This document shows, one piece after another, positions 1-59,572 of a stretch of 64,000 bases of DNA (the stretch's first letter is position 1; every line of letters starts with the position of its first letter). The DNA is from Candidatus Heimdallarchaeota archaeon. Lineage in GTDB: Archaea; Asgardarchaeota; Heimdallarchaeia; Heimdallarchaeales; Heimdallarchaeaceae. The notes under the pieces were generated by a model. The model saw nothing but the letters and a program-made list of their open reading frames with translations, had not been told where the DNA came from and ran no database searches. The stretch lies in contig JAHLWR010000008.1 of assembly GCA_019057815.1 (NCBI GenBank), positions 64,001 through 128,000 on the forward strand, in the 5' to 3' direction. The translations under genes were made by a program, and so were the position numbers.

Positions 1-1341
1 ATGAAATTGATTTTCTCTCTGAAAATCAGTCTGTGTCAATGGATCTGTAAAAATATCAAAATGCTCAAAAAGTACATAATACCAAAAACATATATCATTT
101 AGTGCATTTGGATTATATCCCATGATTGATTTTCTGTATCCTCTTTCAATTCTTTCATAATCATTCACTGACACTGGAGTTTTTCCATCAGTTGTGAAAG
201 TTTTTTGAGGTAAAATACAATAGTAAATATCTGAATTGATAATTTTTGTAGTAATAACAACTGATAAATGATAACAAAAATTAATCTTTTGTTCTTTCAT
301 TCTAACAGATGCAACATCTCTAGAATGTAATTTGCTACCCTTTTTCCATCTAACACTCCGTTTTAAATATTTTGGGTATTGTAATGGATAAAACCATCTC
401 CCTTTATTGTCAGTGTAAAGACCTCTATGTCTACAAAGTTTGTTTGCAGTAGTATTCAAAAGATAAATTAGTGTATTATGTTTGTCTCTTTCTTGAATCC
501 AATCTACAATATCTATTTCTTCAATTGATGTTTCATCAACAAAATTAAGCAGGTTATTTTTTCTATTAAAAGAATAAAGTGATATCAGTTTTCCTTCAAA
601 TAGAAGAAAAGGTGGTGCATACTTTATTTTAGAGAAAATTTCATCTTTTGTTCGTATACTAGTATTTGCTTGCCAGATTTTATCAATATTAGTTAACTGA
701 ACTAAATTTGAAATAATATATTCTTCTTTTTTTTCTTGATATAATTCTTCTTTCAAATTCTGATAATTAGAAAAAATGTTGCTTGGATCAAATTCTTCAT
801 TATAAATTTGGTCGATTTTTATTTTTAAGGAATCAATATCTGATTGATAAAGATCAATCTTTCCAAAAAATCCTTTTAAATCATCAATAGTTAAGGAGAG
901 TAGCAGTTCTTTGTCTTTATCATCTTTTGTAAGGGGAATAATCTTAGTTATTATGCTTAATATTTCCTCATTGCTCAATTTATTCAAGAGAGATTTATGA
1001 AATACTTGATTCTTTGTATTTCTTGCAAAAATCATTAATCTGAATCTATCTTCTGGAATTCTATAAAAATAAGATAACGTGTAACCTAAAAATTCCTCCA
1101 AAAAACTGGAATCATTAAAGCTAAAATCTGACCATTTAGCTTCAATCCAAATCTCTCTGTCTATTTCGGTCTCATTATCAATAAAAATCAAATCAGGTAA
1201 GTGTCCTTCAACTTTTGAATCTGAAATAAATCTATGCCCCTTAGCTTCTAGATAAGCTCTAATATATTTCTTATAAGTTTCAGAATTTGCAGTTTTTGCT
1301 TCTCTATCACCAAGTAAATTGTAATAAGGCAGATGTCTCAC
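1..1341 (-). CDS. PD-(D/E)xK nuclease-APAZ fusion (short prokaryotic Argonaute effector-like), 3'-partial, >=447 aa
   Basis: Hand-translated: open frame from GTG at 1341 to the window edge, no stop. N-terminal YLEAKGH..LPD50LIF..WIE67AK69; C-terminal EYIISNL, PPFLLFEGKLISLYSF, LCRHRGL..WFYP, YHLSV, ILPQKTFTTDG, YNPNALNDICFW resemble APAZ consensus blocks. Confidence 0.75.
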   Translation of the reverse strand, partial: MRHLPYYNLLGDREAKTANSETYKKYIRAYLEAKGHRFISDSKVEGHLPDLIFIDNETEIDREIWIEAKWSDFSFNDSSFLEEFLGYTLSYFYRIPEDRFRLMIFARNTKNQVFHKSLLNKLSNEEILSIITKIIPLTKDDKDKELLLSLTIDDLKGFFGKIDLYQSDIDSLKIKIDQIYNEEFDPSNIFSNYQNLKEELYQEKKEEYIISNLVQLTNIDKIWQANTSIRTKDEIFSKIKYAPPFLLFEGKLISLYSFNRKNNLLNFVDETSIEEIDIVDWIQERDKHNTLIYLLNTTANKLCRHRGLYTDNKGRWFYPLQYPKYLKRSVRWKKGSKLHSRDVASVRMKEQKINFCYHLSVVITTKIINSDIYYCILPQKTFTTDGKTPVSVNDYERIERGYRKSIMGYNPNALNDICFWYYVLFEHFDIFTDPLTQTDFQRENQFH

Positions 1342-1673
1342 TTCCCTAATGTGTCTAATATAAAAAATAAGTCATATAAAAATATAAACTTTTACTCTGA
1401 GTAATTATATTTTCGAGAATTTTCATTTTACTGCAAAGAGTACTATCTTCTCATATAGAGGAAGTTCCAAGAAGTAGACCTTGATATAAGGATTTAATAT
1501 TAGTAGAACACAAAAATTAGTTCCATACGTAAATGTTTGAGATAAAAACTGACCCTATAAATTCTTAATAGAAAAAACGCATAAAATTTTAATTTTCTAT
1601 AAATAGAAGCTATAATGATATTAAATACTTCAAGCTCTATGTTTAAGAAAGGTTTTATAATTAAGATGTTTCT

Positions 1674-2750
1674 TTGTTTTTAATGATAAAAGATCTGATT
1701 ATAAAAAACTTCAAATCTGTAGAAAATCTTGAATTAAGTTGTTCAAAGTTCAATGTATTCATAGGAGAACCTAACGTAGGTAAATCAAACATTTTAGAAG
1801 CTTTAGGTATTTATTCATCACTTCTTTATAATAAACACACTAAAGATCAAAAGCTAATAAGTAAAGAATTTGTCAGATATGAAAATTTATTAAATTTATT
1901 TCACAACAATTTTATCCAGAAAGATATAGAGATAATAACAGACAAAAGTAAGATTTTGATAGAAGCTAAAGAAAATTACTTCAAATACTCGGTCTGTAAA
2001 ACAGAATTAGGCATAAAACAGGACGAAAATCAAGAGATGTACAGAGACATAATAAAATCACAATTACTCTTTGAAGCTGAATTAGAAAATGATGGAAAAT
2101 ATCATTCAGGTCTCCATAAGGGTAGAATAAAAGAAGAAGAAAAATTGAAAACCTTTTTACCTAATTTTAAAATGTATAAACATATCGAATTAAATCAATT
2201 TTTATCCAAAGATTTTGCATTTTTAAATCCACCTTCTGGAAATAATCTTCTTACAATTCTACAAACACATGAGGATTTATATGAATATTATAATGATATT
2301 TTGCATCCTTTTAATCTACGTTTGATGCTCAGAGAGATTGATGGAAAAATCGAGTTTTTAAGAGATGCAAAAGGTAAATTGATTCCTATTCCTTTTAGCT
2401 TGATTGCAGAAACTTTTCAGCAACTTTTTCTAATATTAGCATCAATAGAAACAAATGAAGATTCAATTATAGTAATTGAAGAACCTGAAACTCATGTTTT
2501 CCCTAAATATACTAAAAAAATTGCTGAAATGATTGCAAAAAATGAGAAATCAAATCAATTCTTTATCTCTACGCATAACCCCTATTTTTTGATATCTTTA
2601 ATTGAAAAAGCAAAAGAAAAGGATGTTAGCATTTTTGCTGTTGAATTCGTAAACAATGAAACACAAGTTAAGAAACTGGATAATGCTGATATTCAGCTAT
2701 TATTAGAGGGTGAAGATCCTTTCTTTAATATTAGAAAATATTTTGAGTAG
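1674..2750 (+). CDS. ABC-type ATPase of the AAA_15/AAA_21 (OLD/AriA-like) group
   Basis: IKNFKS, Walker A GEPNVGKS, Walker B/D-loop IIVIEEPETH, H-loop STHNP; likely start ATG 1683. Confidence 0.9.
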   Translation: MFLMIKDLIIKNFKSVENLELSCSKFNVFIGEPNVGKSNILEALGIYSSLLYNKHTKDQKLISKEFVRYENLLNLFHNNFIQKDIEIITDKSKILIEAKENYFKYSVCKTELGIKQDENQEMYRDIIKSQLLFEAELENDGKYHSGLHKGRIKEEEKLKTFLPNFKMYKHIELNQFLSKDFAFLNPPSGNNLLTILQTHEDLYEYYNDILHPFNLRLMLREIDGKIEFLRDAKGKLIPIPFSLIAETFQQLFLILASIETNEDSIIVIEEPETHVFPKYTKKIAEMIAKNEKSNQFFISTHNPYFLISLIEKAKEKDVSIFAVEFVNNETQVKKLDNADIQLLLEGEDPFFNIRKYFE

Positions 2751-2757
2751 ATTTCCA

Positions 2758-3243
2758 ATGATCTTAGTTGAGTGCGATCCTGATGAAGTACTAGTAAAAA
2801 CTTTGATTCCCAATCTTACAAAAAATGATTATTCACATGCAGGTAATAATACTGGAGTTATTAAAAGGTTAATTAAAAAAACCGAAGGAACGGGACATAT
2901 TGGTATTATTGATAAAGATTCTGGATCAATACCACCTGGGTATTTTAATAAATTTGATTTAGTTCAAGAATGGGAATCATTAAACATTGAGCTCTTGAAA
3001 GCACCAAATAATGCAAAATTAATCGTTCTTTATCCCAATTTGGAAGGGTGGAGTATAAATGCAGCTCACTTCATCCATATAAAACTTAAAGACTATAGTT
3101 TACCTGAATCAGAAAAAGAATTGCATAAAATAATAAATGAAAAACCGAATCTAATGAAATTTGAAAAACTTATAACAGATTTAGAAAAAAAGAGTAAACA
3201 CATACAAGAATTAAAAGCAATCTTAATGGAATATCATAAATAG
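2758..3243 (+). CDS. Stand-alone TOPRIM-like protein partnered with the ATPase
   Basis: First strand with acidic residue ILVECDPDE and DxD motif IGIIDKD; ATG 7 nt after the ATPase stop. Confidence 0.65.
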   Translation: MILVECDPDEVLVKTLIPNLTKNDYSHAGNNTGVIKRLIKKTEGTGHIGIIDKDSGSIPPGYFNKFDLVQEWESLNIELLKAPNNAKLIVLYPNLEGWSINAAHFIHIKLKDYSLPESEKELHKIINEKPNLMKFEKLITDLEKKSKHIQELKAILMEYHK

Positions 3244-3391: not shown

Positions 3392-3640
3392 TTAGATTTT
3401 TCTTATCATATCAATTAGTTTATCTTTTGGAATATTATTCCAGATTGATATTTTTGATAATATGTCAGTTAATGTTCCTTTTGCAATTTCAGGGTGTCTA
3501 GGGACGGTAATATTATGTTCCCCAGCTTCAGTTGTTTTTCTTAGACTCACGTGACTCCCCCTTTGCTTAATTATCTTGTAACCTAATTTCGATAACATCT
3601 TGATTAAGTGATTACCGCTAATTACTGGTAACTTTGGCAA
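3392..3640 (-). CDS. hicA: HicA family mRNA interferase toxin
   Basis: LP.ISG..LIK.L..LGY...QRGSHV..ITVPRH.EIAKGTL motif. Confidence 0.9.
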   Translation of the reverse strand: MPKLPVISGNHLIKMLSKLGYKIIKQRGSHVSLRKTTEAGEHNITVPRHPEIAKGTLTDILSKISIWNNIPKDKLIDMIRKI

Positions 3641-3842
3641 CTGAACCTACCTCAATTTCTGAAATTGAAAGGATTCTTATCTCTTCTCCTTTGTTTAAAA
3701 TATCTTCAAAATGGACTTCTACTGCTTCTTTAATGTTATCCATCAAGTTATCTAATGTATTACCTTGAGTAAAAATATCTACTCCAATTCCTCTTGCACA
3801 CCAGAAGTCTTCATCTTTATATATCTCAAATTTGACTAACAA
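3618..3842 (-). CDS. hicB: HicB family antitoxin
   Basis: IFTQG.TLD.LM.NIKEAVEVH motif; overlaps hicA. Confidence 0.85.
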   Translation of the reverse strand: MLVKFEIYKDEDFWCARGIGVDIFTQGNTLDNLMDNIKEAVEVHFEDILNKGEEIRILSISEIEVGSVAKVTSN

Positions 3843-59464: not shown

Positions 59465-59572
59465 GACCAGGTAGTCAAGCTTGGTATGATACATGCTTGG
59501 GGACTTGTTTGATTGTGTATCCTCAAGCTATCGTGCATGTGACCCGGGGTTCAAATCCCCGCCTGGTCACCA
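59465..59572 (+). tRNA. tRNA-Pro(GGG) with 31-nt intron (59503-59533), CCA encoded
   Basis: Acceptor GACCAGG/CCTGGTC-ACCA, D stem GTCA/TGAT, anticodon stem CATGC/GCATG, T arm CGGGG-TTCAAAT-CCCCG; anticodon 59499-59501; intron at 37/38. Confidence 0.9.

Follow-up and report, generated by a model that had tools for sequence, protein, structure and literature searches.

A putative short-Argonaute defence operon with a PD-(D/E)xK nuclease-APAZ effector in an Asgard archaeon

Introduction

Which effector does a short prokaryotic Argonaute (pAgo) of an Asgard archaeon control, and what could this effector do once activated? The question is raised by a gene at the left edge of a 64,000-nucleotide stretch of a Candidatus Heimdallarchaeota archaeon genome (contig JAHLWR010000008.1, positions 64,001 to 128,000). 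This whole stretch, hereafter the window, corresponds to C27:64001-128000 of the 3.7-Mb, 48-contig genome. The gene encodes a fusion of a restriction endonuclease (REase)-like head and an APAZ domain, and is followed, just outside the window, by a gene for a short pAgo. We interpret this pair, with a probability of roughly 80%, as a two-gene short-Argonaute defence system composed of a PD-(D/E)xK nuclease-APAZ effector and a short pAgo expected to bind guides without slicing. The present computations cover the identities of the domains, the conserved nuclease site, the missing slicer residues, the invariable pairing of the two genes in one operon, and a heterodimer interface backed by co-folding; the steps that would follow heterodimer formation are inferred from SPARDA, SPARHA and SPARTA.

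Short Argonaute systems are major guide-triggered immune switches that are also useful in biotechnology, e.g. for nucleic-acid detection. To our knowledge, detailed study has so far reached only four effector types, TIR, SIR2, DREN and HNH, all of them from bacteria. If archaeal REase-APAZ systems form a further nuclease class, as suggested below, a guide-triggered suicide nuclease would be added to the Argonaute repertoire of Asgard archaea, which among prokaryotes stand closest to eukaryotes. An enrichment of Argonautes in Asgard genomes is already known (PMC11291487).

Effector gene and protein family

The minus-strand open reading frame (ORF) starts at a GTG at position 1341 and proceeds to position 1 with no stop, covering 447 codons and running off the left edge of the window. 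The left flank (L001, C27:52001-68000; window coordinates equal L001 coordinates minus 12000) adds 56 codons, giving a protein of 503 amino acids (aa) in total (L001:11830-13341, minus strand); the TAA stop codon ends the gene at C27:63830, 170 nucleotides (nt) beyond the window edge. Apart from this GTG, no canonical start lies between the codon of the invariant residue E14 and an in-frame TGA (1374-1372). A TATA-like box, TTTATATTTTTATAT, located 31-45 nt upstream of the GTG, is a possible archaeal promoter that would leave the effector gene with a short or absent leader.

The protein matches the PADLOC model Aga_REase_Archaea (E = 9.8e-30, 102.4 bits; residues 31-450 on model positions 1-383 of 416), and its C-terminal half (residues 201-454) also matches the PADLOC REase-, SIR2- and TIR-"PNTD1-PNTD2" (APAZ) models. 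An exhaustive HMMER search retrieved 279 cluster representatives of the family at E<=1e-3; the majority are 460-500 aa in length and match end to end. A word-index protein search yielded only two close relatives, and two scans of a collection of species-representative genomes with back-translated patterns found none. Pfam and NCBIfam contain no family for the effector or its 47 aligned relatives, apart from one weak Mrr_cat match.

Residue conservation was counted in the resulting 48-member alignment. The head retains an intact D...(D/E)xK catalytic site, with D50 and K69 present in 48/48 members and E67 in 47/48; E14 occupies all 44 non-gap rows and E21 is found in 42 of 48. In the C-terminal half, N212 (47/48), H358 (46/48) and G386 (47/48) stand out, and P469 is also conserved in at least 90% of the members. 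Residues N212, H358 and G386 belong to a series of ordered blocks, namely EEYIISNL (205-212), APPFLLFEGKLISL (241-254), LIYLLN...RGL...WFYP (291-319), YH (357-358), P378..FTTDG (382-386) and YNPN..FWYYVLF (410-425). Judged by this alignment, the blocks are real and under selection. The preliminary description of the window, made from its letters alone, had recognised the truncated frame, the PD50..E67xK69 motif and the C-terminal blocks, and had interpreted the protein as a nuclease-APAZ fusion; all four points hold, the last one by virtue of the PADLOC match and of the structural matches given below.

One homologue deserves a separate remark. In a genome with the same gene order (G055:C139; L017/L027), the REase-APAZ protein was matched in two pieces, covering query residues 6-190 and 234-447. 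Both pieces lie inside one 504-aa frame, and the pAgo gene follows as usual; the gap may stem from divergence of the linker, or from local effects of assembly or alignment.

The APAZ half

The AlphaFold model of the full-length effector, built from the family alignment, reached a pLDDT of 86.7. It places the APAZ domain before a disordered tail formed by the last ~30 residues, up to residue 503. All of the best 50 PDB matches found with Foldseek are APAZ subunits of SPARDA, SPARHA or SPARTA. The HNH-APAZ chain of SPARHA, 9om4_A, aligned with a TMt of 0.72, followed by many SPARTA TIR-APAZ chains; the same chain is the sole solved APAZ protein detectable by sequence (phmmer, E = 1.2e-5).

The first-ranked match, 9qcc_A (E = 1.4e-15), is a DREN-APAZ chain of SPARDA. 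This ranking favours the view that the operon is a SPARDA in the strict sense, i.e. a DREN/DUF4365-APAZ protein with a short pAgo. However, it is the APAZ half that carries these structural matches: the APAZ-only chains 9qbp_A, 9qbl_A and 9qcc_I gave TMt of 0.70-0.76 and root-mean-square deviations (rmsd) of 3-4.5 Å (9qbl_A, TMt 0.74, rmsd 4.5; 9qbp_A, TMt 0.70, rmsd 3.2), whereas full-length alignments to SPARDA chains had an rmsd of about 20 Å. The nearest APAZ relatives also argue against it, bearing Schlafen or TIR heads and not DREN: among the ten APAZ-only matches with other heads, eight carry SLFN_AlbA_2 (Schlafen) and two carry TIR. The APAZ lineage therefore exchanges effector modules.

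Partner Argonaute, operon linkage and predicted heterodimer

The preliminary description had predicted a minus-strand MID-PIWI gene immediately beyond the left edge of the window, and a gene for a 495-aa pAgo is indeed found there. Its product matches the PADLOC model pAgo_I along the entire length of the model (E = 3.3e-128, positions 1-455 of 455). Translation probably begins at the ATG at L001:11858, which a GGAGG precedes at a distance of 6 nt; this ATG is located 29 nt before the effector TAA, resulting in a 29-nt overlap of the two genes. The preliminary description had also considered an orphan or trans-acting APAZ effector with no Argonaute of its own. This alternative had nothing in its favour beyond the window edge, which hid the neighbouring gene; the overlapping pAgo gene refutes it, and we leave it practically no weight.

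The Pfam Piwi model matches neither this protein nor anything else in the genome, and NCBIfam has no match for the pAgo either. Since Pfam Piwi is blind to this pAgo, its identification relies on matches to PADLOC models and to PDB sequences. The best of the latter are the pAgos of SPARDA (9qbp_B, E = 3e-60, residues 3-483), SPARHA (9om4_B, E = 3e-58) and NbaSPARDA (9jsb_A, E = 9e-57); those of SPARTA and SPARSA match more weakly. The best solved matches are thus S2B-type pAgos, a placement by sequence matches and not by phylogeny.

The protein is an Argonaute reduced to MID-PIWI. It was aligned with eleven related short pAgos and with three Pfam-Piwi-positive long Argonautes (Agos) of Asgard archaea from the same phylum, which contain GxD, RDG and YAD motifs. 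Residues H191, K195, Q206 and K248 of the MID pocket for the guide 5′-end are kept in 12/12 short pAgos and align with Y/G-K-Q-K of the long Agos. In the PIWI part, S269, K347/S348 and R471 occupy the positions where the three long Agos have catalytic D, D and D, and E294 alone is kept. With the pocket retained and three of the four slicer residues lost, the pAgo should therefore be able to hold a 5′-phosphorylated guide and should be unable to slice.

A search with a profile hidden Markov model (HMM) of 400 genomes from the same phylum found the effector family in 22 of them, including the genome under study, and in 6/90 among high-quality genomes; a genome of the same genus gave no match in this search. 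Such a patchy distribution is typical of defence genes. Homologues that never co-occur with a PIWI protein would speak against the assignment to short-Argonaute systems. The opposite was observed: in each of the 25 other loci (22 loci from 21 other genomes of the phylum, plus three metagenome contigs carrying the two closest homologues, with 56% and 35% identity), the effector gene is immediately followed by a pAgo gene on the same strand, and this pAgo gene is the lone conserved neighbour of the effector across these loci.

The closest homologue is encoded on a JGI metagenome contig that also carries an rve-family integrase gene (L002:8-949), located divergently upstream of the REase-APAZ/pAgo operon; the products of this operon share 56% and 68% identity with the two proteins studied here. 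This arrangement is a hint of transfer of the module along with mobile DNA.

Co-folding of the pAgo with APAZ residues 200-503, a check proposed in the preliminary description, gave an ipSAE of 0.79, compared with 0.00 for the best of three controls; this mark is attained by 58/80 solved complexes and by 2/110 mismatched pairs. The runs had at least 68% of contacts in common, with a partner pLDDT of at least 78. Contacts with the lowest expected error (0.7-1.1 Å) join effector residues 207-213 to pAgo residues 379-384. The models thus support a heterodimer of the pAgo and the APAZ protein.

The nuclease head

Modelled alone, the head (residues 1-190) reached a pLDDT of 92.2 and a pTM of 0.87. 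Its best Foldseek matches are Cap4 (6vm5, E = 2e-4) and LmuA (9nxx_D, E = 5e-4). VIA-align matches, covering model residues ~15-189, include HerA-DUF4297 (9c1m_G; Z 9.1, rmsd 4.1, 149 residues aligned), LmuA (9nxx_B; Z 9.0, rmsd 4.4, 153 aligned, and 9hr5_A; Z 8.8, rmsd 5.1, 164 aligned), Cap4 (6vm6_A; Z 8.1, rmsd 4.2, 143 aligned), HamA (8zue_A; Z 8.0, rmsd 4.1, 149 aligned), Avs3 (8dgc_A; Z 7.9-8.1, rmsd 4.5, 156 aligned) and FokI (2fok_A; Z 7.5, rmsd 4.1, 134 aligned). An independent shape search of the ESM Atlas returned clusters carrying Cap4_nuclease (PF14130), with TM of 0.59-0.63 over 154-160 aligned residues. An Atlas feature search provided leads only, namely a cluster at 0.93 with Mrr_cat on 23% of its members and a SMEK cluster at 0.87. 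We consider a Cap4/DUF4297-like fold of the modelled head probable, not proven, because the structural scores are barely over the level which the tool describes as a "common arrangement".

The structural alignments to Cap4, LmuA and HamA-type proteins span residues 15-189, and for this reason the helical stretch at residues ~112-183 is assigned, on the model, to a helical subdomain of the nuclease. The preliminary description had taken it for a linker, a point that has to be corrected.

Sequence models are of little help in naming the head. A Pfam scan of the 48 members at E<=0.05 detected DUF4365 (PF14280), Cap4_nuclease (PF14130) and SMEK_N (PF21941) in 0/48 each and Mrr_cat (PF04471) in 1/48 (E = 0.026); NCBIfam gave no match for the head. 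A head profile searched against PDB sequences found nothing meaningful and no DREN chain at E<=10. SPARDA DREN chains are not in the best-50 structural match lists of the isolated head, which still leaves a distant relationship possible. By these searches, the head does not match the DREN/DUF4365 domain of SPARDA. A strict-sense SPARDA, which could also claim that the best solved match of the pAgo is a SPARDA pAgo, is therefore opposed by the absence of DUF4365 from all 48 members and by the failure of the head profile to find DREN, and we regard it as highly improbable. The label "SPARDA-like nuclease effector" given in the preliminary description stands for the architecture and the probable mode of action only; it does not extend to the head.

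Proposed mechanism and its main alternative

By analogy with SPARDA, SPARHA and SPARTA (PMC9097488, PMC10810196, PMC12205087, PMC12738770, PMC12774872, bioRxiv 10.1101/2023.06.08.544223), we propose the following sequence of events. The effector and the pAgo would be co-translated and form the predicted heterodimer, which would load small 5′-phosphorylated guides, probably RNA. Pairing of the guide with complementary invader DNA would induce conformational changes, including displacement of the C-terminal tail of APAZ, and these would lead to assembly of a tetramer, another oligomer or a filament in which the nuclease heads are brought together. The activated heads would then degrade DNA indiscriminately, so that the infected cell is killed or arrested (abortive infection). 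Oligomerisation switches on the Cap4, LmuA and HerA-DUF4297 nucleases, which fits the proposed activation model. The surroundings of the operon also favour a defence system, comprising a PARIS-like AriA/AriB pair, an AbiLi-like pair and HicAB.

Several points weigh against this interpretation. The type of guide and of target, the substrate and the oligomeric state are all extrapolated from related systems. The head is undetected by the sequence models Cap4_nuclease, Mrr_cat, SMEK_N and DUF4365, save for the single Mrr_cat match, and its structural Z scores of 8-9 are close to the common-arrangement level mentioned above. Complexes similar to the co-folded one are present in the PDB, and the co-fold result may reflect memory of them, showing likeness and not proof of binding. 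The MID pocket of the pAgo has H-K in place of the R-K noted for SPARDA, and guide preference may therefore differ from that of SPARDA. Finally, a SMEK-APAZ system is reported, in a work cited in PMC10810196, to cut the guided target and not collateral DNA; collateral activity is therefore not guaranteed.

This last report leads to the main rival explanation, in which the REase-APAZ protein replaces the lost PIWI slicer and cuts the guide-paired nucleic acid only, with no collateral damage or cell death. Target-specific cutting of this kind is what was first predicted for nuclease-APAZ partners (PMC6299218); the cited behaviour of the SMEK-APAZ/short pAgo pair is a precedent for it, and the intact nuclease active site agrees with it. 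However, the well-characterised S2B systems, SPARDA and SPARHA, are all filament-activated collateral nucleases, and the 495-aa pAgo is closest to the pAgos of precisely these systems. The fold neighbours Cap4, LmuA and HerA-DUF4297 are likewise non-specific effectors activated by oligomerisation. We consider target-specific cutting unlikely and prefer a collateral nuclease acting through abortive infection.

Host and genomic neighbourhood

Three full-length proteins of the actin family are encoded in the genome, and the highest-scoring one reaches 446 bits against the eukaryotic Actin model. Two adjacent Snf7/ESCRT-III genes exceed the Pfam cut-off, which is attained by 0/14 control prokaryotes. 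A profilin search of the genome gave no match, and none in the controls either, so it is uninformative. The actin and Snf7 matches support an Asgard archaeon as the host, as had been supposed from the window.

The features of the locus are listed in Table 1.

Table 1. Features of the REase-APAZ/pAgo locus and of its surroundings. Coordinates are those of the window unless prefixed with C27 (contig) or L001 (left flank).
Feature	Coordinates	DNA strand	Basis and remarks
REase-APAZ effector gene, codons 1-447 of 503	1..1341	-	ORF; PADLOC Aga_REase_Archaea
PD-(D/E)xK nuclease domain, residues 1-190, alpha-beta core with helical subdomain	772..1341	-	Model and structural matches
Catalytic core, D50 (1192-1194) ... 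E67-x-K69 (1135-1143)	1135..1194	-	48-member alignment
Further conserved acidic residues E14 and E21, upstream of the catalytic core	1300-1302; 1279-1281	-	48-member alignment
APAZ domain, residues 200-447 in the window	1..744	-	Model and Foldseek; continues to ~residue 470 outside the window
Strand I207-V213 (IISNLV; N212 in 47/48)	703..723	-	Co-fold; predicted pairing with pAgo 379-384 at the heterodimer interface
TATA-like box, TTTATATTTTTATAT	1372..1386	-	Read off the sequence
Partner short pAgo gene, 495 aa	C27:62371-63858 (L001:10371-11858)	-	PADLOC pAgo_I, PDB sequence matches; wholly outside the window
PARIS-like pair	L001:8034-10299 (C27:60034-62299)	-	71 nt after the pAgo gene, co-directional, left of the window
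AbiLi-like ABC/AAA ATPase, 358 aa	1674-2750	+	PADLOC AbiLi (E = 7.3e-23), Pfam AAA_21 and AAA_15; divergent from the effector
177-aa partner overlapping the AbiLi-like ATPase	2710-3243	+	Just a weak PADLOC MADS mad4 match (E = 1.7e-3)
HicA toxin	3392-3640	-	Pfam HicA_toxin (E = 1.8e-13)
HicB-like antitoxin	3618-3842	-	HicB_lk_antitox (E = 1e-5, slightly under the cut-off); 23-nt overlap with HicA

The PARIS-like pair consists of an AriA-like ABC ATPase (466 aa, PADLOC E = 5e-30) overlapping an AriB-like TOPRIM/DUF4435 protein (295 aa, E = 3.6e-22). The reading of this pair as a component of the pAgo system was rejected: no AriA/AriB-like or AbiL-like sequence was found beside the operon in the other fetched loci (tblastn, E<=1e-3, with five extended downstream regions included), a search that distant analogues could escape. 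On this sequence comparison, the PARIS-like and AbiLi-like pairs are regarded as island neighbours and not as parts of the pAgo system. The AbiLi-like ATPase and the 177-aa protein may themselves represent a split OLD/PARIS-like pair of an ATPase and a small nuclease.

The neighbourhood also bears on a possible non-defence role in mobile elements or DNA transactions, as suggested for HrAgo2-type Asgard short Agos. Some Asgard short Agos adjoin transposition and replication genes (PMC11217426), and the integrase gene upstream of the closest homologue would agree with such a role. Against it, the neighbours found here are defence and toxin-antitoxin genes, the pAgo gene alone is conserved as a neighbour across the 25 loci, and the architecture is that of abortive-infection pAgo systems. 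A non-defence role thus appears very unlikely, and a defence function is retained.

Two further observations concern more distant genes. A serine-hydrolase gene (Pfam Beta-lactamase) on the plus strand of the left flank (L001:5189-7548, C27:57189-59548) is split into two ORFs, which match model positions 1-107 and 148-313 and are about 390 nt apart. A tRNA gene at window positions 59465-59569 (plus strand; Rfam, 52 bits) is 105 nt long against a 71-position model, which is consistent with an intron-containing archaeal tRNA.

Comparison with known systems

The operon corresponds to a Class I argonaute system of PADLOC composed of Aga_REase_Archaea (PDLC02417) and pAgo_I (PDLC02376): both genes match near end to end and in the same two-gene order, and no structural difference from the catalogue type was found. 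This type is the "REase-APAZ" of Lu et al. 2023 (PMC10810196). As the family is already in PADLOC, the locus opens no new category. In the papers searched, we found no biochemical or genetic characterisation of the Aga_REase_Archaea family and no Cap4-type head on an APAZ protein. The locus represents a clean, intact and translationally coupled example of the archaeal REase-APAZ type, to which the present work adds a probable, model-based structural grouping of the head with Cap4/LmuA-type effector nucleases rather than with DREN.

With SPARDA (NbaSPARDA and XauSPARDA; PDB 9qcc, 9qbp, 9jsz and 9vx6) the system has in common an inactive short pAgo of the S2B type, the APAZ fold with its C-terminal tail, a PD-(D/E)xK head, the order of effector and then pAgo, and, by analogy, a probable collateral DNase outcome. 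The equivalent tail of SPARDA is proposed to occupy the guide-target cleft until activation. However, the defining part of SPARDA is its DREN (DUF4365) head, whose topology is Hjc-like and differs from that of Mrr-like heads (bioRxiv 10.1101/2023.06.08.544223), whereas the head described here has no match to DUF4365 and resembles Cap4, LmuA and FokI-type nucleases with a helical subdomain. Further differences from SPARDA are an APAZ identity of just 12-17%, the H-K in place of R-K in the MID pocket, and the archaeal host.

SPARHA (HNH-APAZ; PDB 9om4; PMC12738770) likewise employs a nuclease effector, activated by target-induced filaments, but its head is an HNH (beta-beta-alpha-Me) nuclease and not a PD-(D/E)xK one. 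Archaeal operons of Schlafen-APAZ and short pAgo contain the nearest APAZ domains with a different head; they differ in bearing a Schlafen RNase-type head where the present effector has a DNase-type REase.

The same D...ExK site occurs in Cap4 (CBASS), LmuA (Lamassu), HerA-DUF4297, HamA (Hachiman) and Avs3, all of them effector modules switched on by oligomerisation. These are coupled to SAVED, SMC-like, HerA or STAND sensors, in contrast to the Argonaute/APAZ pair described here, and the head has no sequence match to PF14130. Elsewhere, nucleases of the Cap4/DUF4297 type answer to CBASS, Lamassu, Hachiman, HerA or Avs sensors. With the balance of evidence tilting slightly in its favour, we suggest that archaeal REase-APAZ may constitute a fourth nuclease class of short-Argonaute systems, in which such a nuclease has come under Argonaute control. 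This class would share an APAZ lineage in which REase, Schlafen and TIR heads are freely exchanged, would be activated by target-induced oligomerisation, and might have guide and substrate preferences unlike those of SPARDA. The locus is accordingly a candidate for asking if archaea, and a further class of nuclease, also use the filament or oligomer route of activation known from SPARDA and SPARHA.

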